Assembly: GCA_963768175.1 (NCBI GenBank)
Contig: CAVYGQ010000001.1
Coordinates: 446,305 to 510,304, forward strand
Source: Candidatus Doudnabacteria bacterium
Lineage (GTDB): Bacteria > Patescibacteriota > Doudnabacteria > UBA920
Direction: 5' to 3'
Length of the DNA stretch: 64,000 nt
Position 1 is the stretch's first letter, and every line of letters starts with the position of its first letter. Shown here piece after piece: positions 1,321-58,998 of the stretch. The notes under the pieces are model-generated. The model searched no databases. It was given only the letters and a program-made list of their open reading frames with translations, and was not told where the DNA came from. The position numbers and the translations under genes are program-made.

Positions 1321-1400
1321 GGCGTCATCCTGAGCGGAGCGAAAGATCTCAAACCTAAATAAGAGATTCCTCGTTCATGCTACTTCCTCGGAATGACGCC
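1321..1400. repeat. MITE-like palindromic element, family D (terminal inverted repeat GGCGTCATCCTGAG ... CTCGGAATGACGCC)
   Basis: The termini are inverted repeats. Homologous copies occur at 5221, 17026, 18032, 58907 and half copies at 4269 and 22351. Confidence 0.7.
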
Positions 1401-1501
1401 AGGGATTTTGTTATTTAAACGGTAAGCGAGGGCTGTCCTTTGCTTAGGCATTTCCAAGAAAAGGACAGCCCTCTTCCGCGCGATTATTGTTATAGGGATT
1501 G

Positions 1502-3355
1502 TTACTTGTTAGCCAAACTTTCCTGGCTCTCCTGGATTTCCAAAAGCTGCTTGGGGTCGGTGGTAATAATCTGGTCTTCCACGTAGGACGCGTAAATTTT
1601 AATGGCCGCGTGTTTTAACCCCGCGAAAAATATCCCCTCGCCAACTTCGCTTTCAAGTAGCAGATATTTTTCGCCTTCGGTTAAAAAGAAAGTCTCGGCA
1701 ACTACGTTTATGGCCGCCGGGCTCTGCTTAAGCAGCATCTGGATGGAAGAGTTGGTAACTATCGGTTTGCCGTAAGGACTGGCCAGAAAATCGGCCACGT
1801 CCTGCGTAATGGTGGTCAAACCAAGATAATATTTGCGGGCGCGCTTGGCAATGCCGAACAGGAACCTCGCGCTGTCTTCGTGCTGCATCAAAATCCAGGC
1901 TTCGTCCACCGCCAAGATGCGCTTTTTAAGCTCTGAGCGCACCATATTCCAAATATAATTTAAAATAATATACATAGCTATAGGCCTTAACTCCTCTTCC
2001 AAATCGCGAATACTAAACACCACCAGCTGGTTGTTCAACACTACATTAGTCTGCTGGTTTAAAAGCCCGCCAAAAGTGCCTTCGGTAAATTTTGTCAGGC
2101 GCTGGCCTAAACTTTCCGCTCCGACCATATTGTTTAAAATTTCCACCAAATCGTTCATAGTCGGATATTCCAGGCCGCGGAAATCCGCCAAATCCGGCGT
2201 GACATCTTTTTTGGCGTAAGTCTGCCAAATCGCCTTATCCATCAGCGCTTCTTCCGTGGGGTTTAGCTTGCCTATCATCAAACTAAACAACCCCAAAAGG
2301 TTAATAACCGCGGTGCGCAAAACGTCGGCGTTGCTTTCACCTTCAATAGCCACAGGGAGGTCAAACGGGTTTATCCGCGAAGCCGAATTCAGCGATACGC
2401 TTAAATAAGTACCACCCACGGCCGCAGCCAAGTGCTGGTATTCGTTTTCCGGATCGACGATAATGACTTCGGTGCCGATCATCAAGCTGCGCAGCACTTC
2501 CAATTTTACGGCATACGATTTTCCGGCACCGGATTTGGCAAACACCACGGAGTTGGCGTTTTCCATGGCAAAACGGTCAAACAAAATCAGGCTGTTGTTG
2601 TGGCGGTTAATGCCGTATAAAATGCCGTCGTTACTGGTTAAATCCGACGACACGAAAGGAAAACAAGAAGACAAGGGGCTGGTATTCATATTGTTGGCTA
2701 CATCCAGTTCGTCCAGCCCGAGTGGCAAAGTGGAATTCAGCCCGTTTTGGGTTTGCATCAACGCGCGCTTGGTCACGATCAATTTGGAACCGAGCGAGCT
2801 CTCCAGGGTGCTGGAAAATTTATCCAGCTCCTTTAAGTCAGTGGCATAAATTGTAAAATACAAAGCAAAACGAAAATACTTTTCGGTACCCTGCATCAGG
2901 TTGTCCCGCAAACCTTCCACGTCTTTGTAGGCGGTCTCCAGCATCGGATCGCGCACCATGCCTTTTTCCTGGTTAATGGCCATCTGGCTACCGAGCTCCC
3001 CGACCTTGCTTTTAAGTTTTTTTAAAATGTCCGCCGAATCTATAGGGTAAATAAACATGGACAAATCCAGCGCGCCTTCGGCCTGGATAATAAAAGACAG
3101 CCAGTTGCTGGAGAGGAACCTTGGATAAGCCAGCACAAAAAAACTCCTGCCGAATTTGCCGTTAAGCTCAAAATGGGAGCTGTCAAATTTCAACGAAGCT
3201 GGGGCTATTAAATCTTTTAGCGTAGTTAAACCTTCGCGGTAGGTTCTGTCCAAATCCCCAAGACTTGAGCTCAAACTACGTTCGGTTTCGGCTTCTTTCA
3301 GGCTTTGTTTTCTTGCTTCCAGCTCTTGGGGAGTGATTTTTGAAAAAATGCTCAT
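1502..3355 (-). CDS. virB4: VirB4/TraC/CagE-family type IV secretion ATPase
   Basis: 617 aa with Walker A FAKSGAGKS and Walker B ILAVDEAW. The N-terminal domain is typical of Gram-positive VirB4 homologues. Confidence 0.8.
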   Translation of the reverse strand: MSIFSKITPQELEARKQSLKEAETERSLSSSLGDLDRTYREGLTTLKDLIAPASLKFDSSHFELNGKFGRSFFVLAYPRFLSSNWLSFIIQAEGALDLSMFIYPIDSADILKKLKSKVGELGSQMAINQEKGMVRDPMLETAYKDVEGLRDNLMQGTEKYFRFALYFTIYATDLKELDKFSSTLESSLGSKLIVTKRALMQTQNGLNSTLPLGLDELDVANNMNTSPLSSCFPFVSSDLTSNDGILYGINRHNNSLILFDRFAMENANSVVFAKSGAGKSYAVKLEVLRSLMIGTEVIIVDPENEYQHLAAAVGGTYLSVSLNSASRINPFDLPVAIEGESNADVLRTAVINLLGLFSLMIGKLNPTEEALMDKAIWQTYAKKDVTPDLADFRGLEYPTMNDLVEILNNMVGAESLGQRLTKFTEGTFGGLLNQQTNVVLNNQLVVFSIRDLEEELRPIAMYIILNYIWNMVRSELKKRILAVDEAWILMQHEDSARFLFGIAKRARKYYLGLTTITQDVADFLASPYGKPIVTNSSIQMLLKQSPAAINVVAETFFLTEGEKYLLLESEVGEGIFFAGLKHAAIKIYASYVEDQIITTDPKQLLEIQESQESLANK

Positions 3356-3362
3356 AAGTTTT

Positions 3363-3565
3363 CCGATTCGGATTTACGGATTGTATCCGGATCAACGGAT
3401 ACCTGCGGATACTTTTTAGTAAGTTTTAAAATTATTTTTGGTTTAAATTATACCAGTTTCTTTTCATAAAACGACCTGCTTTTCTGCTTGCCTCTTATAT
3501 AAGTACCCGTGGTTATCTGTAAATCCGGATTGTCCCATCCGTATATCCGGATCGGGTTTATTCGG
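3363..3565. repeat. MITE-like element, family C (ATCCGGAT-containing arms at 3363..3412 and 3518..3565 are inverted copies of each other)
   Basis: Left arm is cggatttacggattgtatccggat. Right arm is its reverse complement, gtaaatccggattgtcccatccgtatatccggat. A related copy sits inside rsmA at 17587..17697. Confidence 0.55.
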
Positions 3566-4241
3566 AAATTTTAATGTCTTTCATCTGTGCCGGATCAATT
3601 AACGGGGCAGCGTCAAAATTATAGGAATTGTAATACAACTGGATAATCTCCTCGGTCTTTAGCCTGACACCCCTCACGCCAATGCCGGAAAGGTTAGAAA
3701 GTATCGCCATAACCCTTGTGTCCAATTTTTCTTTGGCTTTCTCAAAATTCTCTATTTTTTTGGCAATCTGTTTGGATTTTCCGCCGCCAAAAATGCGGGA
3801 AAAAAATCCTGCGGCGGGGGGAAAAATGCTCTCTCCCAAAGGAATTATGATATAAAAATTTTTATTCATAATGCTGGCGTTCTCAATAAGCCGGGCTATA
3901 AATTCCGTGTACTCAACGGTCTGAACCCTCAAAAGCTCGTTGGTTTGCTTTTCGGCCAATCCCTTGAGCTTTTCCAGGTAACCGCCAATTTCCATTTTGC
4001 GGCTTTGCATAAGAATTTGGACTGAGAAATCCAAGCTGTTTAAAAACCGCTGAAAATTAAAAATAATGGAATCCTGTTCGTCCTGGCTCTTTAAGTCAAA
4101 ATTGGTGCTGGACACGGACAAAATCGCCCTAAGTGTCCCGTCGTCCGCCACCACGGTGTCGTTTTTTATTTCACTAAGCCGTAAAAAACTTTGGGTGGTT
4201 TTTCCCAGCGGCTTTTTCTTGTTTTGCATTTCAAGCTTCAT
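3558..4241 (-). CDS. Hypothetical protein in the T4SS-like cluster
   Basis: The ORF track gives 3558..4298, but its first 19 codons (MAALGAQDDAT...) are the translation of a family-D repeat half copy. The start probably lies at the MKLEMQNKKK methionine. Confidence 0.5.
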   Translation of the reverse strand: MKLEMQNKKKPLGKTTQSFLRLSEIKNDTVVADDGTLRAILSVSSTNFDLKSQDEQDSIIFNFQRFLNSLDFSVQILMQSRKMEIGGYLEKLKGLAEKQTNELLRVQTVEYTEFIARLIENASIMNKNFYIIIPLGESIFPPAAGFFSRIFGGGKSKQIAKKIENFEKAKEKLDTRVMAILSNLSGIGVRGVRLKTEEIIQLYYNSYNFDAAPLIDPAQMKDIKISE

Positions 4242-4268
4242 AGTAATCGCAAATATACAAATAAGAGT

Positions 4269-4313
4269 GGCGTCATCCTGAGCCCCGAGTGCAGCCAAGG
4301 GGCGAAGGATCTC
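4269..4313. repeat. Family D repeat, half copy
   Basis: ggcgtcatcctgagccccgagtgcagccaaggggcgaaggatctc. Confidence 0.6.
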
Positions 4314-4596
4314 AAAATTCAGATGATAAGTCTTTCCATTCCGGGTTTATACTATTAATTAAGTTAATTTTCTTTTGCCTTGTCCAACCCTTTATTCTTT
4401 TCTCTTCCGCGATGGCTTCTAGTGCGGTTCCAAATTCTTTATAATAAACAAGTTTTGTTACATTATACTTTTTCGTAAAACCCTCTACTAACTTATTCTT
4501 ATGCTGATAATTCCTGTTTACGATACTATTGGTTATACCTGTATAAAGAACCGTATGAACTTTATTTGTCATTATGTAAACATAAAACGATTTCAT
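4312..4596 (-). CDS. Small GIY-YIG nuclease-family protein
   Basis: FYVYIMTN...LYTGIT...R...H motif pattern, 94 aa. Confidence 0.7.
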   Translation of the reverse strand: MKSFYVYIMTNKVHTVLYTGITNSIVNRNYQHKNKLVEGFTKKYNVTKLVYYKEFGTALEAIAEEKRIKGWTRQKKINLINSINPEWKDLSSEF

Positions 4597-4708
4597 AGTT
4601 TGAGATGCTTCACTTCGTTCAGCATGACGCCGTGAAATAGAATCACTTTACTCGATTTTTACTGTTATCCATTTTGTATTTTAATTTATTTTTGTATTTT
4701 CGCGATTA

Positions 4709-5155
4709 CTATCTCATTTTCCCCGCAATATCCTGTTCCTCCGAAACAGTTTTTCTTAACAACTCCTGGACTTCTTTTAGATGCGCCTGAGGGTCTTGGG
4801 GGACCGTAGCTTCAGCCTTAACGGGAGAAGAAAGCTGGGCGTCGGACATTTTACCGTTTGGCATCAGGGCGCGCGTTTCTTTATGGAAAATCAAAATCTT
4901 CGGGCTGGTAAAAAACTTTATAAAATTACCAATGCTGTTGTATACCGGCCGTCCGTTAATTTGGACAAAGGCCATGCCTAGAGCCGGCAAGCCAAAAAGC
5001 ACAAACAGGAAAACCGCGACTAAAATGCTCTTGGTGGCGGAAAAGCCCAAAAAAATAACAATGCCGGCGGCAAAAATTATGCCAAACTGTTTTATTGTCA
5101 AAGGCCCAATAATTTTATCTTCCACCTCGGTAAATTGTGGAACTGGAAATTGCAT
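4709..5155 (-). CDS. Small two-TM membrane protein, PrgI/VirB3-like T4SS component (tentative)
   Basis: VEDKIIGPLTIKQ motif followed by two hydrophobic helices. It lies beside virB4. Confidence 0.45.
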   Translation of the reverse strand: MQFPVPQFTEVEDKIIGPLTIKQFGIIFAAGIVIFLGFSATKSILVAVFLFVLFGLPALGMAFVQINGRPVYNSIGNFIKFFTSPKILIFHKETRALMPNGKMSDAQLSSPVKAEATVPQDPQAHLKEVQELLRKTVSEEQDIAGKMR

Positions 5156-5220
5156 AATCTCACTTTAATTATAACACAGACTATCCTTTATCTTTGATCA
5201 ATAAATCGCTCGCTGCACCC

Positions 5221-5364
5221 GGCGTCATTCTGAGGCCTGAATAAATCTGCCTTTCGACTTTGCTCAAGGCACCCTGAGCGAAGCCGAATGGGTGAAGGCC
5301 GAAGAATCTCTTTGCCCTAGATTTTTAGATCCTTCGGTCGGATGCACTCCCTCAGGATGACGCC
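5221..5364. repeat. Family D MITE-like element (long copy)
   Basis: ggcgtcattctgagg ... cctcaggatgacgcc termini. Confidence 0.7.
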
Positions 5365-5455
5365 AATAGAGAATGCTACGTTTAATAATACCCCATCACA
5401 ATCTCTAAATTTAAAGCCATACTTGTCTGCCATGGGTAAAAGATTAAGAATAAAA

Positions 5456-5495
5456 GATGAAGGATGAAGGATGAAGGATGAAGGATGAAGGATGA
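5456..5495. repeat. Heptanucleotide tandem repeat (gatgaag/gaaggat) x about 5.5
   Basis: Direct tandem repeats are visible immediately 3' of the 5498..6376 gene. Confidence 0.8.
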
Positions 5496-5497
5496 TA

Positions 5498-6376
5498 TCA
5501 ACTTGTCTGTATTTTCGCCAACAAATCAGTAAACTTCTCAAACTCCTCTTTGGTCAAATAATCCCCTGTACCCTCGACATCTAAACTTTCAAAGTCGGGT
5601 TGCCCCGAGAGTAATTTTAAACCCGTGTTAATATAATTTTTATAAGTCTGGCTTTTTTCCAAATTAAAAATTACTTCAAAATACCCGTACTTGGCGACTA
5701 ACGACTTAATCTTTTTTGCCAAGGCGTCCAAAGGCCAAGCCTGTAACATCCGGTTTTCAAACACAGCCAGATCCTGCAAGCCGTTTATTGCCTGTCCATT
5801 TGACGCAACCGGCTTTGAAACCGGCGGCTCGTAGGTAGGCTGTTTTTCCAGTGGAAAATCTTGTCCGGGCAATTTTGAAAGGGAACTTGCAAAACTGGGC
5901 TTTTGCTGAAATGTTGACGGCTTTGCGGCTAACGGGGCAAGCGGCACAGCGGATACGGAGGGAAAAACGGTTTTTGGCTTTGGCGACACCGCTGGCGGAA
6001 CTTTTAATACGGGAGAGGCGGGCTTAACGGTCTGGGGGCTGACAAACGGCTTTTCCCTGATTGGAAAAAAAGGTTTTAGAGCCGCAGCCTGCCCTTTTTG
6101 ATCTTGCCTGATAAATGGTTTTTGTTCTATGATCTGTGATTTGTGATCTATGTTCTGTAATTTATGCCCCTCCTCTAACTCTAACTCCGGATGCCCGGGA
6201 GGCAGCTCTTTTTCCTGAAAAATTGATTTTAAATTAGATGCAAAAATTGACGGCTTCTTTTGGGCAAGCGGCTGCTGGATCTGCGAAGTGGTCTTGGGAG
6301 CCTCATATTTTATAGCGGGAATTTGACCGAATTTCCCTAAGTCTGGCAAATTCATTATGTGGCTCAACTTCGGCAT
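5498..6376 (-). CDS. Hypothetical Pro-rich protein
   Basis: 292-aa ORF co-oriented in the cluster. Confidence 0.5.
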   Translation of the reverse strand: MPKLSHIMNLPDLGKFGQIPAIKYEAPKTTSQIQQPLAQKKPSIFASNLKSIFQEKELPPGHPELELEEGHKLQNIDHKSQIIEQKPFIRQDQKGQAAALKPFFPIREKPFVSPQTVKPASPVLKVPPAVSPKPKTVFPSVSAVPLAPLAAKPSTFQQKPSFASSLSKLPGQDFPLEKQPTYEPPVSKPVASNGQAINGLQDLAVFENRMLQAWPLDALAKKIKSLVAKYGYFEVIFNLEKSQTYKNYINTGLKLLSGQPDFESLDVEGTGDYLTKEEFEKFTDLLAKIQTS

Positions 6377-6619
6377 TTAAGTCTTCTGCTCCATTCCCCT
6401 CCTTTCTAAGGAGGGGCTAGGGGAGGTTATTGTCTTAATTGCTGATTGCTTATTACTTACTGCTGACTGCTGACTGCTTGCCAGTATCTTTTCCAGCTCT
6501 CCCAATTGTTTATCGCTCATTGAATCCAAAAGCGCCAGCCATTCCGTCCGCTCCGAGACCGACAAAATTGCCGAAGACCTAACCAACCCTTTAATTTTTT
6601 CTATTTCCGCGATATTCAT
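6377..6619 (-). CDS. Hypothetical small protein with an in-frame family-B repeat (..ITSPSPSLERRGM..)
   Basis: 80-aa ORF. A 42-nt repeat at 6391..6432 lies inside it. Confidence 0.4.
   Translation of the reverse strand: MNIAEIEKIKGLVRSSAILSVSERTEWLALLDSMSDKQLGELEKILASSQQSAVSNKQSAIKTITSPSPSLERRGMEQKT
6391..6432. repeat. Family B palindromic repeat (ccattcccctcctttctaaggaggggctaggggaggttattg)
   Basis: Identical 42-mer at 7231..7272 and a related compound copy at 33652..33728. Hairpin CCCTCCTT/AAGGAGGG. Confidence 0.75.
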
Positions 6620-6740
6620 CTTATATAAAAGCTAAATTCCTATTTGACAAAAATATTAATATAATATATTTAGTTTTACAGAACCACTCCCGCAAGAAGG
6701 CGGGTTTTTTTATCTGGATAGGCTTTTGCTTTAAGTTTCT

Positions 6741-6832
6741 CCATAATTCCTAACTCCTAACTCCTAACTCCTAACTCCTAACTCCTAACTCCTAACTCCT
6801 AACTCCTAACTCCTAACTCCTAACTCCTAACT
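6741..6832. repeat. Heptanucleotide microsatellite (ctaactc/taactcc) x 13
   Basis: Perfect tandem array overlapping the stop codon of the 6827..8185 gene. Confidence 0.9.
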
Positions 6833-8185
6833 TTTAATTCCGTCCTGCGTCTTCTTCCTAAGTTCCTCCAACTTCCGGTCAATTTCCTGCTGCTTAGATT
6901 GTATATTCTGCGGCGCCGGCTTTTTCTCAAGCAAAGGATTTAAAACAAAAGACGAAGGATTTTTACCCTCTACATTTTCATTTGAAATTGCCTGCCCGCC
7001 AACCGCTGGAGCCGAAGGCGACTGCGGGCGGGGAAATTTGTTATTTGGAATTTTCTCTACCCCCTCTCCCATCTTAAGCCCCGCTGTTGTTTCCTCACTC
7101 CGATCCCTGTTCTTCAAAATATTTTGGATGTTCACCCTGCTGGGCATCACGCCGATACCCGTCCTATCTGTCCAATCAGTCTTATCCATCCTATTTTCTT
7201 CAGCAAACACCGGCTTCTGCAACCCCGCACCCATTCCCCTCCTTTCTAAGGAGGGGCTAGGGGAGGTTATTGGGTTGTTGAAAATTCCTTCCGACCTTCC
7301 GATTTCCGATTTCCGACCTTCTGATATTCCGACATCCGACATTCCGACCTTCCGATTCTCCGATGCGTTCTTTGGCACCGGCACTGCGGGCGGCTGCTGA
7401 TTGGTGATAGGTCGTGGAAGCTCATTTGATGACAATTGAAATTTCTGGGATTGCATATAAGGCAAACCCCCCGTAGTTTTCGTCTGTTCGCCTGGCTCTT
7501 CTGGAATAACTGCGGGCCCCGGCGGCGGAAATAGCAGCCAATCGTAAATTTCCAAAATTTGTTTAAGCACTTCCTTGTCGGTGTTATTAAGTTGGCTAGC
7601 TTGCCTATTATTATTGAAAAAATTAATCTGGTTAAACTTGTCCCTATTTACGGTTAAAGGCTGATTTGTATTGTAACTTTTTAACCAATTTTGAATAGTT
7701 GGCTGAACTGCGCCGACATCTAAACTCAAAGGTTTGTCACCCAACTTTTCTTGATTATTTTCTAAAGAATAAATCCAGCCGCGGCGAGTTTCCTTGTCCG
7801 GTCCAACGCGAAATTCATATATCCCTAATATTTTCTTTAGGCATTCGGAAACATTTACGCCCAATTTTATGGAATCGACTAAATTCTCAGACAAAATATT
7901 TTTACTCTGTTTAAGGGACATGGCCGGCATGGCCTTCCAAGAAAGCACCCACAAAACCGCCATTAATTGGTTATAAATTATTGGGTTAGCTTCCACTTGC
8001 CCCTGATTATCCTTTACCAACTTGTCCAATTGATCATAAAATTCCATTGCGCGCCCAGGCTCCAAATCAAACTCCGCGTCTTGAGCTAACTCAGACAATT
8101 TATCTAAAACACGCTGGTCAGCCAAAGCTTCAGCGTCAAGCAAAAATAAATTTTTTATATTCAATATGTCGGCGATACTAGCCAT
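6827..8185 (-). CDS. Hypothetical protein carrying in-frame repeat insertions (family B and TTCCGA tandem repeats)
   Basis: 452-aa ORF. The IGRSEGI.. and PSPSLERRGM segments are encoded by repeats at 7288..7365 and 7231..7272. Confidence 0.5.
   Translation of the reverse strand: MASIADILNIKNLFLLDAEALADQRVLDKLSELAQDAEFDLEPGRAMEFYDQLDKLVKDNQGQVEANPIIYNQLMAVLWVLSWKAMPAMSLKQSKNILSENLVDSIKLGVNVSECLKKILGIYEFRVGPDKETRRGWIYSLENNQEKLGDKPLSLDVGAVQPTIQNWLKSYNTNQPLTVNRDKFNQINFFNNNRQASQLNNTDKEVLKQILEIYDWLLFPPPGPAVIPEEPGEQTKTTGGLPYMQSQKFQLSSNELPRPITNQQPPAVPVPKNASENRKVGMSDVGISEGRKSEIGRSEGIFNNPITSPSPSLERRGMGAGLQKPVFAEENRMDKTDWTDRTGIGVMPSRVNIQNILKNRDRSEETTAGLKMGEGVEKIPNNKFPRPQSPSAPAVGGQAISNENVEGKNPSSFVLNPLLEKKPAPQNIQSKQQEIDRKLEELRKKTQDGIKS
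7231..7272. repeat. Family B palindromic repeat, intragenic in-frame copy
   Basis: Identical to 6391..6432. Confidence 0.75.
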
Positions 8186-8199
8186 AGTTGTTTTTTAAT

Positions 8200-11100
8200 T
8201 TAAATTGGCATCATATGGTCAATAAACAATTTTTCAGCTGCTGCTCTTTGTACCGGGGTCAAAGTTGATAATTTATTACCAGTTGGCAGGCGACCTGCCA
8301 CCGCTGCTATCTTACCAGTTACCTGGGCGGCAAAATCTGCCCTAGTCACTGCACGGCCTGCGATTGTAGCCGCATCAAAGGCGTTGCCTGCCAACGGTTG
8401 TAATTCTTTTCTTAATTCGGATATTTCTACAGGCGTTAACTTATAATCTTCATCTAGTCTACTAATTACGGTCATGGGGTTATATTTTTCCGAGTATTCG
8501 TCCCTAACTTTTTTGTATATTTCGTCCTTGATTGCGGTAACGTGTGTTACTGGCGCACGGGCAGTTGTAAAAGCAGAACGTATGTTTGCTTCTATTGTTG
8601 CCGGAGAACTTGCCCCTCTATAAACAGCATCAATCGCATTATCTATAACCTTACCTCCTCTTAAAGCGTCAGTTTCTTCCTTCTTTAATCCCAAAGTTTT
8701 GCTATCAATCACTTCAGTTGATACGGTCTTAATGACCGGGGTTACTGTTACTGTAGAGTCACCCAAATGAGCAACGGGGGTTGTTTTGCCGGCGGCATCC
8801 AGCTTTACCACCCTAATTCCTTTCACCTCAATAGGTTGCATATTGGTTAACTGCGCATACATGCTACGTACCAAATCCGGATTTTCTTCATACAAACTCT
8901 GGATACGCTTAACGTCAAGATCGTCTTTGACAATAACCGCTCCAGTGTTTTTATCTATATCATCACTTAAAATCCACTCCTTAGTTCTTCCTTGTGAGAA
9001 ACTCGCCTGCTGCAAAGTAGCGCCGTCAAACATAGACAAAACACCCCGTTGATATTCATCAAGCTCCCCACTGGTTCTTCCATACATTTGATCCTTAATT
9101 TCATTTACAGCGTCAATATTTCCACCTGCGTCCAGTTTCGCGCGGAGAGTCACCATATTATGTGGGGCAATTTGCGAGCGGGCACGCCCGCTGACTTTTT
9201 TCAGCTCGCCCACCGCATAATTAGTTTGCCAAGTATTTTTTAGCTTACCTCCCTTAATAGTTCTGCCTCCTACTCCTTTGGCATCGCCAACCAACTCCAT
9301 CCCCCGCTTAAACCTTTTTGAATCATTGTCATAATACGCATGCCCCAGATACTCATAGTGCCCTGTGGACTTGCCAAGTTCTTCAAGATCTTCAGCCATC
9401 AAGCGCTGGGCTTGTTCATCGTCGCCCAAATAACCGTACAAAAACCGGTTTAAAACTTCTGCGCTATAAAAAGTGCCATCGTCATCAGCATACTGGTCTG
9501 CAAAATGCTTTTTCCTAAGTAGGTCGTCCATATATCCTTGTTTGGCAGCTGCCAAGACAATAGCGCGGCGCCTTCTCTTGCCTTCTTCTCCGCCTAACTT
9601 TTCGGCATCTGCGGCCGCATCCATTAAACTTTCTTTACGCATGGTAGAATAGTCCTGAACCAAAGCATTTTCGTCTTTTCTTTCCGCAAATTGCCTATAA
9701 GGAATTTTTAACTTGCCCCTGGTTAAAAACCGTTCTGACATTTCACGCCCGCCTGCCGTAGCCGTGCCTTCTGCTTGATGCTTTAATTCCTCTGCGCGCT
9801 GTTGCCAGCCCTTAAAAAAAGCATCTGGGTTAGAAAGCAAAAATCCGGTTTTTTTCAAAAAGCCCGGTTTATGCTCGCCTTCCTGCTCTAAAAGCGAAGA
9901 ACCAATTTCCTGTCTCTTTCTGTTTACCCAGCCAACTCCTCTTCCAGCCAAAAACGCTGCACCCTGAAACGGAGCAAAGATTCCCTTTCTGGCTATGTCG
10001 GTTATCCCTTGGGCACCGTAGACGCCGGCCAAGGTGGCTACTTTTAAGGAGGCGATTAAAAAAACCAACAATAAAATATTACTTCCCAAGGTCACAATCA
10101 GGCTGGACAAACCGTTTTGTCCATTAAAAATGCTGGCGTTATTGGCCGCAATCTGCAATTGAGAATTGACAGTTGCATTGGTTGCCATTAAAGCTGCCAT
10201 GTTCAGGAAAAAGGCCATTATTGGTGTAAAAAAGGCGTATTTTAAAAACTCCTTCCACCATTTCTCCCTATACTGGGCCGTACTGGGCAAAACCCCAACG
10301 GCATAAGCCACGGGAGAAATCATTAGCAAAAGCCATAACATTACAATCCGGATTACCAAAAACGCCGCAATAGCGCCAAACACGGCAAGCGAGCCCAAGC
10401 TCATAGCCACCCAAAATACAGACGCAACTAATCCTCCAATACTACTATTTACCGCCGATGCGTTAGCGTTCTGCTGCCCTTGGAGGTAGTTCATTAATGT
10501 ACTATTATTTGTAGTCATTAATTTATAAGCCAACCCGTTTACTGACGCAGCGTCGGCAGGCAAAAACTGCGCCTGCACGGTGTCCGCCACGGCTAAAATA
10601 GACTGGCCAATGACCAAACTAAAGTTAATCAGCAAAGCCGCGATAATTAGTTGCACCAATAAATGCCGCGCTTTATAACTTTCCACGCGGAACAACGTGG
10701 CCATGGCAATAATAATCAATGCCACTATAAAAAATATATCGCACAGATTCCGAATGGTTTCCCAACCCGAATAAATAACCGCGACAAAAGTATCCTGATA
10801 AGCGTGAATACCAAGCACAGCAACAATCACTGGTGAAACAAGCAGGAAAAAAATTCCGTAAATAAGCTGCTGAATTGAAGCTAAGACAAAAGCGACTATC
10901 TCGTTTAATAATTGCATCAGCTTGTCGGTTACCCCCGGACCTGCATTGAGATTGTTTCCGGAACCTACGGCGCTGCCATATCCGGGAACGCATCCAGAAG
11001 GTATATTGGCTCCGGTGGTCGGATCGGTACCGGTGCAAGCAAGAGGCGGGCCTGTAACTTTATTGGCGTTTGCCTGGGTGTCATAAAGCTGGACATAAAA

Positions 11101-11850
11101 ACTATTACCACCTTTGAAATAAGTATTATAGGCGTGCGCGCCGGTAAGGGAATTGAAGTCTGTTGATAAATTTTGAAAATCAATTTCGGGGTAAGCATAA
11201 GCCTGGTTCGTTCCGCTATTTGGATCGGTCCCGTTATTAAGTTGGGTTATGCCTAAATCGGTAAAATTGGTCTTATCAATAGTAAATGTGTAATCAAAAA
11301 CAGGCTGCCCGGCTTGAAAGGTTGGGCCGCTAATTTTATTATTACTCTGAGTCGCATCAAAGTAGTTGTTTGGGTTACTGCACACATTGGAAATTAAACC
11401 AGTGCCTATGGGCCCCAATGACTGATTTCCACAAATTTGGGAAGTATTACTAGGCGTTAACACTGCTCCAAAACCTAACAGCTTTCCTGTATCCGGTGTT
11501 CCGCCTGGAGGTGTTGTGGTGCCGATATTAGTACTGTTAAAAGTCAGTGTCGGGGGACTTACAAGGGTAACTATAACCTCTATCGTAGAACTTCCATCCT
11601 GTTGGCCAAGACGAACGAAATTTGTAGTCTGGCCATTAATCTTTATGTCTGTTTTTAAAACTATGTCATTAAAATTACAAGTTTGTGCATTACCTTGGCT
11701 GGTGCCGCAGGTGCTATCAGCGGAAACGGTTATGGGAGTAAGTATCAACAAAACAAAAACCGCTAAAATAAAAGAAAACCACGGCCAGAGGCATTTGGCG
11801 GCAGTTTTGGTTGGGTTGGATTTATTTAAAACTTTTGGTTTCAAATGCAA
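8200..11850 (-). CDS. Giant polytopic membrane protein, VirB6/TrbL-like T4SS channel candidate
   Basis: 1216 aa. N-terminal signal/TM, then about 270 aa Thr/Gly/Asn-rich ectodomain, then about 8 TM helices (residues about 320-640), then about 560 aa charged cytoplasmic tail. Confidence 0.4.
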   Translation of the reverse strand: MHLKPKVLNKSNPTKTAAKCLWPWFSFILAVFVLLILTPITVSADSTCGTSQGNAQTCNFNDIVLKTDIKINGQTTNFVRLGQQDGSSTIEVIVTLVSPPTLTFNSTNIGTTTPPGGTPDTGKLLGFGAVLTPSNTSQICGNQSLGPIGTGLISNVCSNPNNYFDATQSNNKISGPTFQAGQPVFDYTFTIDKTNFTDLGITQLNNGTDPNSGTNQAYAYPEIDFQNLSTDFNSLTGAHAYNTYFKGGNSFYVQLYDTQANANKVTGPPLACTGTDPTTGANIPSGCVPGYGSAVGSGNNLNAGPGVTDKLMQLLNEIVAFVLASIQQLIYGIFFLLVSPVIVAVLGIHAYQDTFVAVIYSGWETIRNLCDIFFIVALIIIAMATLFRVESYKARHLLVQLIIAALLINFSLVIGQSILAVADTVQAQFLPADAASVNGLAYKLMTTNNSTLMNYLQGQQNANASAVNSSIGGLVASVFWVAMSLGSLAVFGAIAAFLVIRIVMLWLLLMISPVAYAVGVLPSTAQYREKWWKEFLKYAFFTPIMAFFLNMAALMATNATVNSQLQIAANNASIFNGQNGLSSLIVTLGSNILLLVFLIASLKVATLAGVYGAQGITDIARKGIFAPFQGAAFLAGRGVGWVNRKRQEIGSSLLEQEGEHKPGFLKKTGFLLSNPDAFFKGWQQRAEELKHQAEGTATAGGREMSERFLTRGKLKIPYRQFAERKDENALVQDYSTMRKESLMDAAADAEKLGGEEGKRRRRAIVLAAAKQGYMDDLLRKKHFADQYADDDGTFYSAEVLNRFLYGYLGDDEQAQRLMAEDLEELGKSTGHYEYLGHAYYDNDSKRFKRGMELVGDAKGVGGRTIKGGKLKNTWQTNYAVGELKKVSGRARSQIAPHNMVTLRAKLDAGGNIDAVNEIKDQMYGRTSGELDEYQRGVLSMFDGATLQQASFSQGRTKEWILSDDIDKNTGAVIVKDDLDVKRIQSLYEENPDLVRSMYAQLTNMQPIEVKGIRVVKLDAAGKTTPVAHLGDSTVTVTPVIKTVSTEVIDSKTLGLKKEETDALRGGKVIDNAIDAVYRGASSPATIEANIRSAFTTARAPVTHVTAIKDEIYKKVRDEYSEKYNPMTVISRLDEDYKLTPVEISELRKELQPLAGNAFDAATIAGRAVTRADFAAQVTGKIAAVAGRLPTGNKLSTLTPVQRAAAEKLFIDHMMPI

Positions 11851-16531: not shown

Positions 16532-17014
16532 ATGAAAAATATTTTAATAGCGATTGCTGTACTAACAATAATTTCCGCAGGCTGCTCAAAACAAAATATA
16601 CCTACTGGAAACACTCTTCCCTCCTCCGCGCCGCAATATAATTATACCCACCAATTAAAAATCGACGGGCAAACTTTGATGGTGGAAGTTGCGACAACTC
16701 CCGCACAAAGGCAACAAGGACTTTCGGACAGAAGCGAAATGGCGGACAACCAAGGAATGCTTTTTGATTTTGGATCCAATCCCAGTTCAACCCCCTTTTG
16801 GATGAAAGATATGAAATTTGATCTGGATTTTATTTGGATTACTGACGGAAAAGTTGTTGGCATCACCGCCAACGCTTTCGCGTCTCAATTACCTGATAAT
16901 AATCTTCCGTTATATTATCCGCCCGAACCGATAAACCAAATTTTAGAAGTCAACGCCGGCTGGGCGAAAAAAAATAACATCGCGGTGGGAGACGATGCTC
17001 AATTAATAAAATAA
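16532..17014 (+). CDS. DUF192-family lipoprotein
   Basis: Lipoprotein signal MKNILIAIAVLTIISAGC and the DUF192 pattern ..GLSDR..M..GMLFDF......FWMKDM...LD.IWI. The ORF track start at 16508 lies inside the UTR hairpin. Confidence 0.75.
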   Translation: MKNILIAIAVLTIISAGCSKQNIPTGNTLPSSAPQYNYTHQLKIDGQTLMVEVATTPAQRQQGLSDRSEMADNQGMLFDFGSNPSSTPFWMKDMKFDLDFIWITDGKVVGITANAFASQLPDNNLPLYYPPEPINQILEVNAGWAKKNNIAVGDDAQLIK

Positions 17015-17025
17015 TATATCGTAAC

Positions 17026-17099
17026 GGCGTCATTCTTAGGGAGTGCGGCCGACCGAAGAATCTAATGATGAGATTCTTCACTGCGTTCAGGATGACGCC
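17026..17099. repeat. Family D MITE-like element
   Basis: ggcgtcattcttagg...ttcaggatgacgcc. It overlaps the last codons of rsmA. Confidence 0.7.
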
Positions 17100-18013
17100 A
17101 TAATGGTATCGACTAACTCAATCCATTCTTCAATTGAAAGTTCCTGCGGTCTAGCCGCGGGATTTATTTTAAGCTGCGATAAAATTCCAGCGACCGAATT
17201 TTTATCCAGGGCCAAATTATTTACCAGCGTATTGTGGATTTGTTTGCGCTTGCCGGCAAAACAGGCTTTGACAATTTTAAAAAATCTTTTTTCATCCGAC
17301 AAAATGTATTTGGGTTCTTTGAATAAATCTATTTTTACAATCGCGCTGTCCACTTTTGGCGCGGGATAAAAACTTTTAGCTAGAACAGTTTGGACAATTT
17401 CAGGCTGGCCAAACAGCTGTATCGAAATTGCCAAAATGGACAAGTCCCCCGCTTTGGCGCAAATGTTCCTGGCAACTTCTTTTTGGGTAAGTATGGTTAT
17501 ACCGGAAGGTTTTGCTTTTGTGGCCATTAACATTTGCAGAATTTTCCCGGTAATGTAATACGGGATGTTGGCAACAACTTTATAATCCGATCCGGATTTA
17601 CGGATTCTATCCGGATGATCCGGGTAACTACGGATGGCGCGATCTGTAGATATCCGCAGATCCGGATTCTCATCCGCAGATCGGGATCGGAATGCCGCCT
17701 GAAAATCAAACTCCAAAGCATCGGCGATTTCAAAACGGAAATTTTCAGGATAATCTTTTTTTATTGATTTGAGGATCGGGAAAAACTTCGGGTCTTTTTC
17801 CACGCTCAACACAAAGCCGGCTCTCTGGCAGAGCAAACGGGTTAGGTTGCCGATGCCCGGACCAATTTCCAAAACCGCATCATTAGGCGAAACCTCCGCG
17901 GCATCCACAATGTCCTGTAAAACCAAATCGTCAATTAAAAAATTCTGCCCGTAGGTGAAGTTGGATTTGAGGTTATAAGAGCGCAAAAATTTTTTTAATT
18001 GATCGGTATCCAT
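17087..18013 (-). CDS. rsmA: 16S rRNA (adenine1518/1519-N6)-dimethyltransferase RsmA/KsgA with an in-frame repeat-derived insertion of about 25 aa
   Basis: YGQNFL..EIGPGIGNLT..VEKD..NIPY motifs. The extra segment RSRSADENPDLRISTDRAIRSYPDHPDRIRK is encoded by the family C repeat at 17587..17697. Confidence 0.85.
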   Translation of the reverse strand: MDTDQLKKFLRSYNLKSNFTYGQNFLIDDLVLQDIVDAAEVSPNDAVLEIGPGIGNLTRLLCQRAGFVLSVEKDPKFFPILKSIKKDYPENFRFEIADALEFDFQAAFRSRSADENPDLRISTDRAIRSYPDHPDRIRKSGSDYKVVANIPYYITGKILQMLMATKAKPSGITILTQKEVARNICAKAGDLSILAISIQLFGQPEIVQTVLAKSFYPAPKVDSAIVKIDLFKEPKYILSDEKRFFKIVKACFAGKRKQIHNTLVNNLALDKNSVAGILSQLKINPAARPQELSIEEWIELVDTIMASS

Positions 18014-18031
18014 AGAAGTTTCTGTTTTTCC

Positions 18032-18124
18032 GGCGTCATCCTGAGTCCGAATGCATCTGAGGACGAAGGATCTCTATCCAAGAATGAGATCCTTCGGTCG
18101 GATGCACTCCCTCAGGATGACGCC
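18032..18124. repeat. Family D MITE-like element
   Basis: ggcgtcatcctgag...cctcaggatgacgcc. Confidence 0.75.
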
Positions 18125-18131
18125 GGCTCAC

Positions 18132-22350: not shown

Positions 22351-22388
22351 GGCGTCATCCTGAGCGAGCGGAGCGAGTGAAGGATCTC
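22351..22388. repeat. Family D repeat, half copy
   Basis: ggcgtcatcctgagcgagcggagcgagtgaaggatctc. Confidence 0.6.
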
Positions 22389-22467
22389 TTAATAAAATAA
22401 AACCCCGGATTTACCCGAGGTTTTTTTGATCCCTAATTCCTAATTTTTGCTTCCTAATTCCAGCCTC

Positions 22468-29043: not shown

Positions 29044-29316
29044 ATGCAATATGTCTATATTTTGCAGTCAGAAAAGGACAAAAAATTTTATACAGGGTAT
29101 ACAAAAAATTTAAAATTAAGATTTGAGCAACATAAGAAGGGCCAAGTTAAATCAACTAACGATCGCAGGCCGCTTAAACTAATTTACCATGAAGCGTGCT
29201 TAAACCAGCAAGATGCTACCCATCGCGAAAAGTACCTAAAAACCTACCTTGGAAAAATGTTTATTAAAAAACGGCTCAAATCTTATTTCAACCTGTTAAA
29301 TAGTTTCACTTTGTGA
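29044..29316 (+). CDS. Small GIY-YIG nuclease-family protein (second paralogue)
   Basis: YVYILQS...KFYTGYTKNLKLRFEQHKKG. Confidence 0.65.
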   Translation: MQYVYILQSEKDKKFYTGYTKNLKLRFEQHKKGQVKSTNDRRPLKLIYHEACLNQQDATHREKYLKTYLGKMFIKKRLKSYFNLLNSFTL

Positions 29317-50504: not shown

Positions 50505-51270
50505 TGCTTAACTCCTTCGCCCTTAAAAAAGCGGCTTTCACGGCTTGCGCGATTATTTTATCAACAGATCGTTTTTGGAAAACTTTTAACGCCGCGTCGG
50601 TTGTTCCTTTTTTTGACCGCACCTTCTTAATCAATTCCTGGTAATCCGCGCCTTTCTGCAATTCGGCCGCTGCGGACAAAGTTTTTTCCACGAGCGTCCG
50701 GCTTTGGGCAGAAGTTAATCCCAACGCCCGCGCCGATAGAACCAAAGCATTCGCCAAATAAAAAAAGTAAGCCGGGCCGCTGCCAGAGATAGCGGTAACG
50801 GCGTCAATCAAACCTTCGTCTTTGACTTCAAAATTCTCCGTAATGCCGTCCAAAACACGCCTGACGGCCTTTTTGTCGAACAATAAAAGTCCCGCGGACT
50901 TCCAAGCCGCAATCCCCTGCCCTACGGCCAAGCCCAAATTAGGCATCATCCTGACAATTTTTTTATGGCTAAACAAACCAGCCAGTTTTTTTATGGGCAA
51001 ACCGGCGGCAATGGAAATAATAATAATTTTCGGATCAACCAGTTGGCGAACCTGCCCGGCCAGCGACGGCACGTCCTGTGGCTTGACAGCAATAATAATA
51101 AAATCAGACTTTTTTAAATTAGCCAATTCCGCATAGCCGACCCCGGCCACGGCTTTAACTTTATCCCGATTCCTATCATAAACAGAAACCTTAAAACCCT
51201 TAGCTTTAACCAAAGCTTTGCCTATAGCCTGCCCCATATTCCCAAATCCAATAATAAATACTTTTTTCAT
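50497..51270 (-). CDS. proC: Pyrroline-5-carboxylate reductase
   Basis: MKKVFIIGFGNMGQAI Rossmann N-terminus, P5CR C-terminal domain. Confidence 0.85.
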   Translation of the reverse strand: MKKVFIIGFGNMGQAIGKALVKAKGFKVSVYDRNRDKVKAVAGVGYAELANLKKSDFIIIAVKPQDVPSLAGQVRQLVDPKIIIISIAAGLPIKKLAGLFSHKKIVRMMPNLGLAVGQGIAAWKSAGLLLFDKKAVRRVLDGITENFEVKDEGLIDAVTAISGSGPAYFFYLANALVLSARALGLTSAQSRTLVEKTLSAAAELQKGADYQELIKKVRSKKGTTDAALKVFQKRSVDKIIAQAVKAAFLRAKELSNG

Positions 51271-52853: not shown

Positions 52854-52963
52854 ATATAGATTATAACAAATAAACGGGTGGTTAAAAAGGGGTCTGTTGC
52901 CGCAATCGCCAAAAGGACCTCTTGGCAATTTTGGGCAAAAAAACGATTTGTTAACCAGCCAAG

Positions 52964-53629: not shown

Positions 53630-53813
53630 TTATTTATCATGGCCCGGCCAAAGAGCGCCTTTGATATCCTTCGCACCAAAATTAAAACTTTATACGTAAA
53701 TCTATTACAAGGCCGCGGCTCACCCCCTGGCCTTTTCCATAAGAATAAAATCAGGAGCGCTTTTGTTAAAACGCTCTTAAACCGTAACAAAATTTATCTT
53801 AACTGTAATATTA

Positions 53814-54620: not shown

Positions 54621-54673
54621 TTAAATCAGCTTGGCGATAAGATCACGTAGCTGGAGAGTTCAATTAAAATTAT

Positions 54674-55267: not shown

Positions 55268-55539
55268 TAAAACTACGTCTTGGGTGTTTTTTGGCGAATT
55301 TATGCCTTCTACAAGCGGTTTTACGGGCTTGATAGGCTTATCGGGAACAGCTTTCTTAGGCTTAACCGGCTGGGTTTTGGGCTGGCTTGGCGCGCCGTCC
55401 TCGGGGATTATAGAGTTCTATTTCGTTGTCCATTTTTTTAAGCGGATAATTTTTAACGTTTACCCCGTAAACTTGTTGTCCAGGGTTATCAAGTTTATTA
55501 TACCACTTTTTCAAACAAACTAAAAATGTACGAGAACTT

Positions 55540-57267: not shown

Positions 57268-57360
57268 AAATATATTTTTTTATATTATTCTCCCTGTATT
57301 ATAGCAAATAATGCGAATAAACGCCCAAACAGGGGCAAAACAAGCCTAATGTGTTAAAAT

Positions 57361-58173
57361 ATGGTTATGGATATGAACTCCCCTATCATTTGTTTCGGCC
57401 AGCAACCATGCGGGTTTTTCCCCAAACGATTTTTGGCCGCTAAAATCAATACTGCCCGCGGCTTGCAAAAAGAGCTTGGCGGCAAGATTGTCTTTTTTTA
57501 CCATGACAGCGATGCGGACTACCGGGAAACTATTACTATAATGATTGACAAAGCCAAAACCGCCGACTTGTCCGCCGAAGCTTTAGCGAAGGCGGAGGTC
57601 CGCTTAAATTTTACCCAGGAAAACAAGCTGCAAAAAAAATTCTCCCCTCTTTACTTAAAACGGATTCCGACCGGCTGGAAAGAGGAAGTTTTAAAACAGC
57701 TGCCTCGGTTTGTTGATAAAAGTTTAATCGATATTTTTAAATCGACTAATAGAAAATTTGTCGCGGACTTTTGCCTGGAAATGTACCGCAAAATGGGGCT
57801 GCTGGAAGGAATCCAAATTTTAAGGTCGTCCGATAAAAGCTTTAGGGAGCAGGCGCCGGAGCTTGCGGGAGAGTTCTTTGCTGATGTAGAATATCAAGGC
57901 GAGACTGTCCGGGCGCAAATGCTGGACGGCCGTTTACGACTGCACGAAGGCGGCGGAAAATACACCCAAATCCCCATGCCGGTCAAAATAGAAAAATGGC
58001 AAAAATCGGCGAGCCGCGACCAGCGCTTTGCCTGGATGCAGTCGGTTATTAACTGTACCCACTATATATACGGCGAAGGCGAGAAAGAATATTTGGATAC
58101 CAAGCCGTTTCCCGAAATTAATTTTATTGACCGCGAAAAAATTGACCAGGCCGGTTATGCCTGGCTTGGCTGA
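57361..58173 (+). CDS. Hypothetical protein immediately upstream of bshB-bshA
   Basis: 270-aa ORF, co-oriented and tightly spaced with the bsh genes. Confidence 0.5.
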   Translation: MVMDMNSPIICFGQQPCGFFPKRFLAAKINTARGLQKELGGKIVFFYHDSDADYRETITIMIDKAKTADLSAEALAKAEVRLNFTQENKLQKKFSPLYLKRIPTGWKEEVLKQLPRFVDKSLIDIFKSTNRKFVADFCLEMYRKMGLLEGIQILRSSDKSFREQAPELAGEFFADVEYQGETVRAQMLDGRLRLHEGGGKYTQIPMPVKIEKWQKSASRDQRFAWMQSVINCTHYIYGEGEKEYLDTKPFPEINFIDREKIDQAGYAWLG

Positions 58174-58208
58174 CTAACCACTAAGCACTAACAACTAACC
58201 ACTATCTT

Positions 58209-58901
58209 ATGAAAATCCTCGCAATTGGCGCGCATCCCGACGACGTGGAGTTCGGCGCCGCTCCCCTTTTAATCAAAGAAGTCAAAAAAGGCAACCTGGC
58301 CAAAATTGTGGTCTGCTCTTTAGGCGAGGCCGGCACCAGCGGCACGCCGCAAAGCCGCAAGAAGGAAGCATCCAGCGCGGCTAAGGTAATCGGCGCGGGA
58401 ATTGAGTTCCTCAATTTGGGCGGCGACTGCCACATAGAGTATAACCCGCAAAACGGATTTAAGATTGCCGCCATCTTGAGAAAATACAAGCCAAATATTG
58501 TGCTCGCACCCTCGCTCCTAGAAAACCAGCATCCCGACCATCTAAACATTGCCAGGCTCACTCGCGACGCCTGCAGGTTCGCGCGCTACGGCGGATTAAA
58601 AGAACTTAAAAGTCTGCCAGTGCATAAGGTAAGCATGCTTTATTATTACGGTTCCAGCGCTGAATGGGACAAAAAACCGGATATTTTAGTGGACGTAACA
58701 GATGTGGAAAAACAATGGCAAAAGGCTATGGCTTGCCACAAGAGCCAAATGCAAACCAAACAGTATATAAATTTAGTCTTCAGCAAATCACGGGCACTGG
58801 GCGCTTCCTGCGGCGTCAAATACGCGGTCGGGCTTTACTCCAACGATCCTATAAGATCGGATGGAATATCGGATATAACTTTGTCGTCCAGAAATTATTA
58901 A
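58209..58901 (+). CDS. bshB: PIG-L/LmbE-family N-acetylglucosaminyl deacetylase, BshB-like
   Basis: AHPDDVEFG zinc-binding motif. 230 aa. Adjacent to bshA. Confidence 0.75.
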   Translation: MKILAIGAHPDDVEFGAAPLLIKEVKKGNLAKIVVCSLGEAGTSGTPQSRKKEASSAAKVIGAGIEFLNLGGDCHIEYNPQNGFKIAAILRKYKPNIVLAPSLLENQHPDHLNIARLTRDACRFARYGGLKELKSLPVHKVSMLYYYGSSAEWDKKPDILVDVTDVEKQWQKAMACHKSQMQTKQYINLVFSKSRALGASCGVKYAVGLYSNDPIRSDGISDITLSSRNY

Positions 58902-58906
58902 CTCAG

Positions 58907-58998
58907 GGCGTCATCCTGAGGAGTGCAGCCGACGAAGGATCTCGTCTGAGGTTAATAGATTCTTCGCCCTCAGATGCATTCGGGCTCAGAATGACGCC
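58907..58998. repeat. Family D MITE-like element in the bshB-bshA intergenic spacer
   Basis: gggcgtcatcctgag...ctcagaatgacgcc. Confidence 0.75.

Follow-up and report, generated by a model that had tools for sequence, protein, structure and literature searches.

Dispersed hairpin repeats and a probable Ssn-family nuclease gene in a Doudnabacteria genome

Hairpin repeats dispersed around a GIY-YIG nuclease gene

The window, i.e. the whole 64-kb stretch of Candidatus Doudnabacteria DNA that was analysed, belongs to a candidate-phyla-radiation genome of roughly 0.95 Mb and contains a type IV secretion-like gene cluster, within which a gene for a 94-aa GIY-YIG protein (here ssn) lies between two hairpin repeats. 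Gene and repeats together form a 363-bp cassette (4269..4631). A nuclease gene this small is easily overlooked in annotation.

Searching the 64-kb window for GGCGTCATCCTGAG with up to two mismatches yielded 14 matches compared to 0.12 expected, a number reached by none of 100 shuffles. A covariance model of the repeat, R1, which was run with filters off and a cutoff of E ≤ about 0.005, recovered 13 units, referred to as arms, that make up six inverted pairs and one singlet (Table 1); R1 was built partly from window arms and the scores of those arms are therefore partly given by construction. The match at 50942 (2 mismatches) was not recovered by R1 and is thus regarded as a chance hit.

As a family, the arms are imperfect hairpins scattered over intergenic spacers. 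All seven places at which the original prediction had reported copies contain them, and the five short pairs indeed fold as the imperfect long hairpins that it described, with z values from -2.2 to -8.3 and 0-7 of 200 shuffles folding as well (DNA folding). As predicted, pairs occupy short spacers, among them those between the RsmA and UvrD genes and between the PIG-L (BshB-like) and GT4 (BshA-like) genes, and the anticipated overlap with gene termini is seen at rsmA (17087..18013, minus strand), whose last 3 codons and stop come from the arm 17070..17099. The spurious ORFs attributed to the repeats, e.g. 1140..1358 and 17043..17369, are present as well. Regarding the two copies described as halves, only 22351..22388 is a lone arm (plus strand), whereas 4269..4313 has its partner on the minus strand at 4602..4631, on the far side of ssn. 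A genome scan located an identical arm (22 specified bases) in other genomes, in at least 120 stretches that cover more than ten phyla among the matches listed; the family is hence not restricted to the window and is no local duplication.

Table 1 Repeat arms and the enclosed nuclease gene in the window. Scores refer to covariance model R1 unless indicated otherwise; z values describe the folding of the whole pair.
Feature	Position	Strand	Score	Remarks
SRM-like arm, left half of pair 1321-1400	1321..1350	+	30.2 bits, E 1.8e-5	Minimal form: GGCGTC-ATCCT-GA-GC-GGA-GC-GA-AAGAT-CTC; pair z -2.2
SRM-like arm, right half of pair 1321-1400	1363..1400	-	35.3 bits, E 9.1e-7	Stem ATTCC/GGAAT
SRM-like arm 3' of ssn, antisense to the gene	4269..4313	+	38 bits, E 1.9e-7	Final 2 nt overlap the ssn stop codon; junction (..TGAGAT..) found again in homolog loci
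Putative ssn homolog, 94-aa single-domain GIY-YIG nuclease	4312..4596	-	PF01541, E 5.8e-16	
SRM-like arm 5' of ssn, sense	4602..4631	-	37.5 bits, E 2.5e-7	Stem ATGCT/AGCAT; ends 5 nt ahead of the ssn ATG
SRM-like arm, left half of pair 5221-5364	5221..5310	+	20.4 bits, E 0.0053 (for 5224-5310)	Top holds a long nested insert with further arm-like units
SRM-like arm, right half of pair 5221-5364	5326..5364	-	36.8 bits, E 3.7e-7	
SRM-like arm, left half of pair 17026-17099	17026..17064	+	28.7 bits, E 4.1e-5	Pair z -5.3
SRM-like arm, right half of pair 17026-17099	17070..17099	-	30.7 bits, E 1.3e-5	
SRM-like arm, left half of pair 18032-18124	18032..18074	+	36.3 bits, E 5.2e-7	rsmA-uvrD spacer; pair z -8.3
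SRM-like arm, right half of pair 18032-18124	18086..18124	-	39.7 bits, E 7.2e-8	
Single SRM-like arm without partner	22351..22388	+	41 bits, E 3.3e-8	Between convergent genes; a terminator-like hairpin comes next
SRM-like arm, left half of pair 58907-58998	58907..58943	+	35.9 bits, E 6.3e-7	PIG-L/GT4 spacer; pair z -3.3
SRM-like arm, right half of pair 58907-58998	58956..58998	-	37 bits, E 3.3e-7	

Arm architecture and association with ssn

The original prediction treated the repeats as terminal inverted repeats of a longer element, but the basic unit is an arm of 30-87 nt, each a hairpin in itself. An arm consists of a (G/Y)GTC tag, a 5-bp stem starting A-T, T-A, a tandem G.A/A.G, a variable apical stem-loop and a C right after the stem. 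The top measures 3 to about 60 nt and is sometimes nested. Some arms stand alone, others form inverted pairs with outward-pointing tags, and one such pair encloses ssn; tags-outward pairs outnumber tags-inward pairs by 33 to 2 (120 genome loci, among the matches listed), and the spacer of empty pairs has a median of 30 nt, likewise among the matches listed.

The hairpin is supported by covariation between the outer and inner 5-mers of the stem: ATCCT was joined to AGGAT in 134 of 138 cases, ATGCT to AGCAT in 6/6, ATCCC to GGGAT in 6/12, ATTCT to AGAAT in 5/8 and ATTCC to GGAAT in 2/2, and variant outer 5-mers never occurred with the canonical inner 5-mer. A second helix, examined without pre-selection, was 85% paired and included G-C to A-U changes. 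Single arms are weakly stable (-1.6 to -7.9 kcal/mol with DNA energy parameters, z not significant), and it is covariation rather than energy that supports the arm hairpin. The arms are invariant at the TC of the tag, at the GA and at the C that follows the stem; in alignment A2 these positions include T5, C6 and C28, and G4 is at least 90% conserved. The invariant positions match those important for cleavage and binding in the Ssn/SRM system, in which a site-specific ssDNA nuclease recognises and binds hairpin repeats, cleaving the DNA immediately upstream (Chenal et al. 2025, Nat Commun 16:2388, PMC11893778). As in the definition of SRM/NTS, the arms are oriented hairpins of 20-50 nt with an upstream GTC and a C directly after the stem, and they flank ssn on both sides. 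Nested inserts extend some arms beyond 50 nt.

Ssn proteins are defined as homologs of N. meningitidis SsnA at E < 1e-10 (PMC11893778). With the gonococcal ortholog as reference in place of meningococcal SsnA, the window protein lies within this limit, showing 45% identity over 85 aa (BLASTP, E 2e-26). It consists of a single GIY-YIG domain (PF01541, residues 4-78) with the catalytic Tyr, Tyr and Glu: Y7, Y18 and E65 align to Y6, Y17 and E64 of SsnA, the three residues that were mutated in that enzyme (PMC11893778). A tblastn search with the protein gave E 1e-16 (7.3 Gb searched), and neither NCBIfam nor PADLOC holds a model specific to it. The other small GIY-YIG protein of the window shows 30% identity over 66 aa and lacks arms.

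We then considered 80 metagenome loci picked on protein similarity alone. An arm was present within 150 nt of 60 of 67 homologs, with upstream-sense arms in 47/75 and downstream-antisense arms in 41/71 cases; compared to a background of 0.02 arms per 150 nt, arms near the nuclease gene are 30-fold enriched. Arm type follows protein clade (0 of 2000 permutations), a correlation that could reflect shared descent and not recognition, and gene-arm junctions are conserved between clades with different arm types. Arms also flank homologs in Neisseria, Azospirillum, Sinorhizobium, Planktothrix and Spirosoma; arrays of 10-18 arms adjoin ssn, and insertions of arms within operons occur, e.g. between sufB and sufC.

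We consider it probable, at roughly 80%, that the repeats are Ssn-related motifs (SRM) and that the ORF 4312..4596 on the minus strand encodes their cognate Ssn nuclease. The prediction that the repeats are non-autonomous, with no mobilising enzyme in the window, overlooked this ORF between two arms. The published SRM pattern, HGTCWYN(0-2)YYVSBRHN(0-5)WNVSBRGN(0-2)RNCYNB, gives 0 matches in the window and 0 among 85 arms, whereas it matches 9 times at the Neisseria locus and 4 times at that of Azospirillum. Because this pattern was derived from 29 genomes as an operational tool (PMC11893778), the window arms would represent a divergent SRM class outside the operational definition of that study, rather than being excluded from the family. 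Repeats were reported near 71% of ssn homologs (PMC11893778); since the pattern misses a large arm class with tandem G.A and variable top, this figure is probably an underestimate.

Alternative explanations and comparison with relatives

The strongest competing explanation, which we nevertheless regard as improbable, is that the hairpins act in transcripts as terminators, attenuators or mRNA stabilisers, roles that have been proposed for REP sequences, and that the nuclease gene is incidental. Most copies do lie directly downstream of genes or in operon spacers, and the pairs form strong hairpins. However, direct reading revealed no clear T-run after any pair, and the arms are tied to the nuclease gene far above background. 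At the gathering threshold, Rfam reported only two tRNAs over the whole window, and a permissive search of 16900-18300 (E ≤ 1) found no match on the arms. We also discarded a hammerhead-like reading of CUGAG..CGAAG, its core being incomplete and an Rfam match lacking. In addition, SsnA binds ssDNA and not RNA (PMC11893778). Side effects of the arms on transcripts may occur.

Many GIY-YIG enzymes are homing endonucleases, and the nuclease gene might thus be a selfish homing gene that targets the spacer of arm pairs, the arms themselves being independent host repeats of the CGTC-type REP kind. The gene sits exactly within the spacer of an inverted pair, and empty pairs with short spacers exist. 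We nonetheless think this quite unlikely: characterised family members leave dsDNA uncut (PMC11893778), gene-arm junctions persist over clades of differing arm type, and in the relative L207 ssn is 92% identical to the window copy, compared to 85-88% for the flanking genes. The divergence of ssn from its L207 counterpart thus resembles that of its neighbours, which gives no indication of a recent invasion; a recent horizontal arrival of ssn is likewise unsupported by these values.

Orthologous spacers of close relatives differ in the presence of pairs, i.e. pairs were gained or lost at two sites: pair 5221-5364 is absent from L207 and pair 17026-17099 is absent in L209-L211; pair 18032-18124 is conserved in L209. 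Clean empty sites that would define a target were not obtained, as the spacers of the relatives contain other palindromes or another gene. A 23S_rRNA_IVP gene was considered as cargo of arm pairs and dismissed, as it is not flanked by arms in L207.

The least credible explanation, and the one originally favoured, is a classical MITE, an IS deletion derivative that relies for its movement on a DDE-type transposase supplied in trans from another part of the genome; it accords with short, dispersed, intergenic copies with inverted ends whose presence varies among relatives, but the flanks of all six pairs in the window lack direct repeats that could be target-site duplications, the supposed ends fold by themselves with internal covariation and can stand alone (22351), the one copy that contains a gene codes for a GIY-YIG nuclease, the putative partner being a hydrolytic ssDNA nuclease and not a transposase, and the gene-arm architecture recurs across phyla. 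Our literature searches found nothing relevant to the DNA string of the repeat and no report joining GIY-YIG proteins to MITEs or REPINs.

Putative function and relation to known repeat systems

Modelled on the characterised enzymes of Neisseria, N. elongata, N. wadsworthii and Wolbachia, the Ssn/SRM reading predicts that the system would act whenever DNA becomes single-stranded, i.e. in incoming transforming or conjugative DNA, during replication or in repair. The 94-aa protein would bind the hairpin only on the strand that carries the tag and cut a few nucleotides upstream of the tag, sparing dsDNA and RNA, so that incoming ssDNA carrying arms would be restricted or shortened.

More speculatively, and in our view rather doubtful, the Ssn-arm pair might be an active mobile element that works by a new kind of mechanism. 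In that case the nuclease would cut ssDNA at the outer arm boundary, roughly where the repeat unit ends, and arms or pairs would be copied to new places, often gene ends, operon spacers and the tops of existing arms. Hints in this direction are the gain or loss of pairs between close relatives, nested arms and the arrays next to ssn, operon insertions as in sufB-sufC, and the identical 22-base cores in more than ten phyla among the matches listed. We know of no strand-transfer chemistry for Ssn GIY-YIG nucleases. A resemblance to insertion sequences has been raised before, without a test (PMC11893778).

As in the published Ssn/SRM system (PMC11893778), the window encodes an SsnA homolog of 94 aa with a single GIY-YIG domain, its hairpins are oriented, carry the GTC tag upstream and have a C following the stem, repeats stand on either side of the gene, and tens of further copies are intergenic. 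It differs in its host, Doudnabacteria being a candidate-phyla-radiation group not mentioned in the main text of that paper, in the tandem G.A and the variable, sometimes nested top of its arms, in the failure of these arms to fit the published degenerate pattern, and in being known from sequence alone.

The window arms also resemble the CGTC-tagged REP superfamily, which includes dRS3 of Neisseria and RPE-4/-6 of Rickettsia and for which no dedicated enzyme was reported (Di Nocera et al. 2013, PMC3733652). In both, the CGTC/TGTC tag is unpaired, the tail is short, most copies form inverted pairs and the stem has 8-9 positions starting A-T, T-A, two of these positions being G.A in the window arms. 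In contrast to these REPs, the tail reads CTC and not CCA, and most tops exceed loops of 4-5 nt, only minimal arms such as that at 1321 having 3-5 nt. CGTC-tagged REPs flank Ssn homologs in Azospirillum, Sinorhizobium and Neisseria.

With REPIN/RAYT and IS200/IS605 systems the window shares short hairpins recognised as ssDNA, singles and inverted doublets, and repeats that flank the gene of their recogniser; however, the enzyme here is a hydrolytic GIY-YIG nuclease and not a HuH Y1 transposase, and the tag is CGTC where that of REPIN/RAYT is GTAG, which places the arms outside that group. Bacterial MITEs such as Correia elements are likewise small, intergenic, without transposase, with inverted ends and able to alter gene ends, but the pairs show no target duplication, no parent IS was seen in the window, and each half is an autonomous hairpin unit.

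For annotation, the arms matter in that they produce false ORFs and false gene starts and have rewritten one real gene end, that of rsmA. The basic picture published in 2025 (PMC11893778) is unchanged by the window case, which would add a candidate-phyla-radiation genome to those with an Ssn/SRM pair and locate the pair within a type IV secretion-like cluster, i.e. an ssDNA-handling machine. Ssn nucleases appear to supply the enzyme that was missing from the 2013 survey of CGTC-tagged REPs.

Dispersed arms and a GIY-YIG gene in the window

The dispersed hairpin repeats of the original prediction are real: a motif scan of the whole window with the 14-mer GGCGTCATCCTGAG gave 14 matches at up to two mismatches versus 0.12 expected, a number attained by no shuffled sequence, and the seven reported sites share one layout, in which an outer GGCGTCATCCTGAG and an inner CGAAGGATCTC enclose a variable middle and, after a short spacer, these parts recur as reverse complement. 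A second motif scan and the arm covariance model R1 revealed 13 self-folding arms, arranged as six inverted pairs plus one singlet. Upon folding, the five short pairs form long DNA hairpins (z-scores −2.2 to −8.3). One pair is located between the RsmA and UvrD genes and another between the PIG-L deacetylase and GT4 glycosyltransferase genes, in agreement at the family level with the flanking genes named previously. The interpretation in the prediction was right in part: the unit is the arm and not the pair, and the supposed half copy at 4269-4313 has a partner arm at 4602-4631 and belongs to a cassette encoding a predicted GIY-YIG nuclease. The corresponding gene, ssn, lies between these arms, and its product of 94 amino acids is a GIY-YIG domain protein (Pfam E 5.8e-16). 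Upstream of the gene, the arm has sense orientation and stops 5 nt short of the ATG; on the downstream side, the arm runs antisense and shares bases with the stop codon.

Features of the window and their counterparts in loci of its relatives (L207 to L211)
Feature	Position	Strand	Remarks
Type IV secretion-like cluster around the ssn cassette	1502..11850	−	synteny unchanged in L207 and L208
TraG/VirB4-like ATPase	1502..3355	−	
ssn cassette, between PrgI and the next gene	4269..4631		also at this site in L207 and L208 (97% identity to the window's ssn protein); arm tops differ in relatives, with a further pair upstream and, inside the 3' arm, a nested mini-arm of 24 nt
ssn	4312..4596	−	
PrgI	4709..5155	−	
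Arm pair	5221-5364		missing from L207
23S_rRNA_IVP (PF05635) gene remnant	5394..5434	−	first ~38 nt
Perfect heptamer array, GATGAAG x 5.7	5456..5495		a single heptamer at this site in L207
Weakly TrbL-like 1216-aa protein	8200..11850	−	
Arm pair rewriting the rsmA end	17026-17099		missing from three relatives
Arm pair	18032-18124		kept in L209, T-A to C-G double change in apical stem
Single arm	22351-22388		
Terminator-like hairpin and T run	22399..22427	+	immediately follows the single arm in a spacer of convergent genes
Short direct repeat cctaattcc	~22431-22460		beyond the terminator-like hairpin
Second small GIY-YIG gene	29044..29316	+	90 aa

Covariation within the arm

Within an arm, the five bases 3' of the GTC tag and the five preceding CTC are reverse complements, a pattern not peculiar to one sequence; inward of this stem follow a tandem G.A/A.G and next a variable stem-loop. 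For the covariation set, outer halves were gathered by GGCGTC-N5-GA alone, in loci fetched for the canonical arm. The complementary inner half was found in 134 of 138 arms for ATCCT (AGGAT), 6/6 for ATGCT (AGCAT), 6/12 for ATCCC (GGGAT), 5/8 for ATTCT (AGAAT) and 2/2 for ATTCC (GGAAT), which means that each variant outer 5-mer pairs with its own complement, and the canonical inner half with none of them. The helix directly above the G.A pairs, which played no part in arm selection, is 85% paired in an alignment of 85 arms and shows G-C to A-U double changes. Since single arms are only marginally stable according to nearest-neighbour DNA energies, the case for the arm hairpin rests on covariation. 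The two arms of one pair may differ in stem type, e.g. at 1321-1400 and in the ssn cassette, which argues for folding within the arm rather than between arms.

Gain or loss of pairs among relatives

The best named relatives of RsmA belong to Candidatus Doudnabacteria, and the source contig comprises 949,077 bp. L207 carries a full 23S_rRNA_IVP gene (8882..9283 of that locus) at the place of pair 5221-5364, which in the window occupies the part of this gene's place not covered by the remnant. Conservation of ssn is not markedly above that of neighbour genes, so no recent invasion is seen. Other, unrelated palindromic repeats occur in relatives, namely AT-rich TTCGAAAT..-type hairpins in the uvrD-rsmA and rsmA-DUF192 spacers of L210 and L211 and a CCCCGGAATTTTCAG-type repeat in the rsmA-DUF192 spacer of L209. 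In this lineage, intergenic spacers apparently serve as general landing sites for hairpin repeats. The RsmA homologs P0122-P0241 range from 270 to 345 aa with a core of about 277 aa, and since the extension of the window's RsmA comes from an arm, other extensions in the lineage may be repeat-derived as well.

Association of ssn with arms and relation to the Ssn/SRM system

A chance origin of the gene-arm link was tested with 80 metagenome loci fetched by protein similarity only. An arm was located at most 150 nt away in 60 of the 67 homologs with both flanks present; an upstream sense arm was found in 47/75 and a downstream antisense arm, mostly starting 1-5 nt past the stop, in 41/71, compared to a background of 0.02 arms in 150 nt for each orientation. 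Arm stem types vary by lineage and follow protein clades, an association matched in none of 2000 permutations; one cluster of 28 proteins has ATTGC/GTTGC arms only. Conversely, among the matches listed for at least 120 genome stretches fetched by arm alone, only five contained an ssn gene, at most 100 bp from the arm in four of these, from which we conclude that most arms are dispersed and a few are gene-linked. Four loci (L186, L190, L188, L201) carry arrays of about 10-18 arms beside ssn, reminiscent of Neisseria NIME clusters.

In annotated replicons, tblastn identified homologs in Neisseria, Sinorhizobium, Rhizobium, Sphingobium, Azospirillum, Planktothrix and Spirosoma, and arms flank the homolog in all five replicon loci read. 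These are dRS3-type repeats in Neisseria and classic CGTC-tagged REP pairs in Azospirillum; in Azospirillum lipoferum (AZO_p3 254012-257278), ssn with one such pair on each side is placed between sufB and sufC of the Fe-S assembly operon. CGTC-tagged REPs were described as lacking a dedicated transposase (Di Nocera et al. 2013, PMC3733652), and their partner was supplied by Chenal et al. 2025 (PMC11893778) with SsnA of N. meningitidis, a 94-aa single-domain GIY-YIG protein. SsnA binds to the NTS hairpin repeat only when this is single-stranded DNA, and cleavage takes place a few nucleotides upstream; the three bases preceding the palindrome matter for cutting and the C following it for binding. 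Related motifs (SRMs) occur in 71% of homolog loci, and loss of ssnA increases transformation with NTS-bearing DNA five-fold (PMC11893778).

Over 85 aa, the window's ssn protein and the gonococcal SsnA ortholog share 45% identity (E 2e-26), and the residues mutated by Chenal et al. (PMC11893778) are aligned between the two, which is evidence at the sequence level for membership in the Ssn family. The second small GIY-YIG protein of the window shows only 30% identity to SsnA across 66 aa, has no GFTxxYN motif and represents a different subfamily; no arms were found around its gene, and a short inverted repeat comes after it. The published degenerate SRM pattern, which does match the Neisseria and Azospirillum loci, has no match in the window and none in the 85 arms. 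The arms nevertheless flank ssn as SRMs do and retain the SRM tag, orientation, hairpin and C after the stem, and the same columns are invariant in the 85-arm alignment. We read them as a putative divergent SRM class of the same system, with tandem G.A and a variable, sometimes nested top.

By analogy with the characterised homologs, the arms are most likely bound as ssDNA hairpins by the window's own Ssn protein, which would cut beside the arm and thereby affect incoming or exposed single-stranded DNA. SsnA is inactive on dsDNA, RNA and the reverse strand (PMC11893778); a dsDNA homing model and an RNA-only role of the hairpins are less well supported, as is a classical MITE. An IS-like or RAYT-like origin of the arms is a hypothesis that was also raised by Chenal et al. 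2025 (PMC11893778).

The exact arm core (22 specified bases) is most frequent in Acidobacteriota among the matches listed (L002-L121), which also include Clostridia, Eggerthellaceae, Saccharibacteria, Doudnabacteria, Chloroflexota, Omnitrophica, Fibrobacter, Verrucomicrobiota and several Proteobacteria, some genomes recurring three or four times. This distribution suggests either horizontal spread or very strong constraint. The Ssn/SRM system itself is already described; new here is a further member with a variant repeat class.
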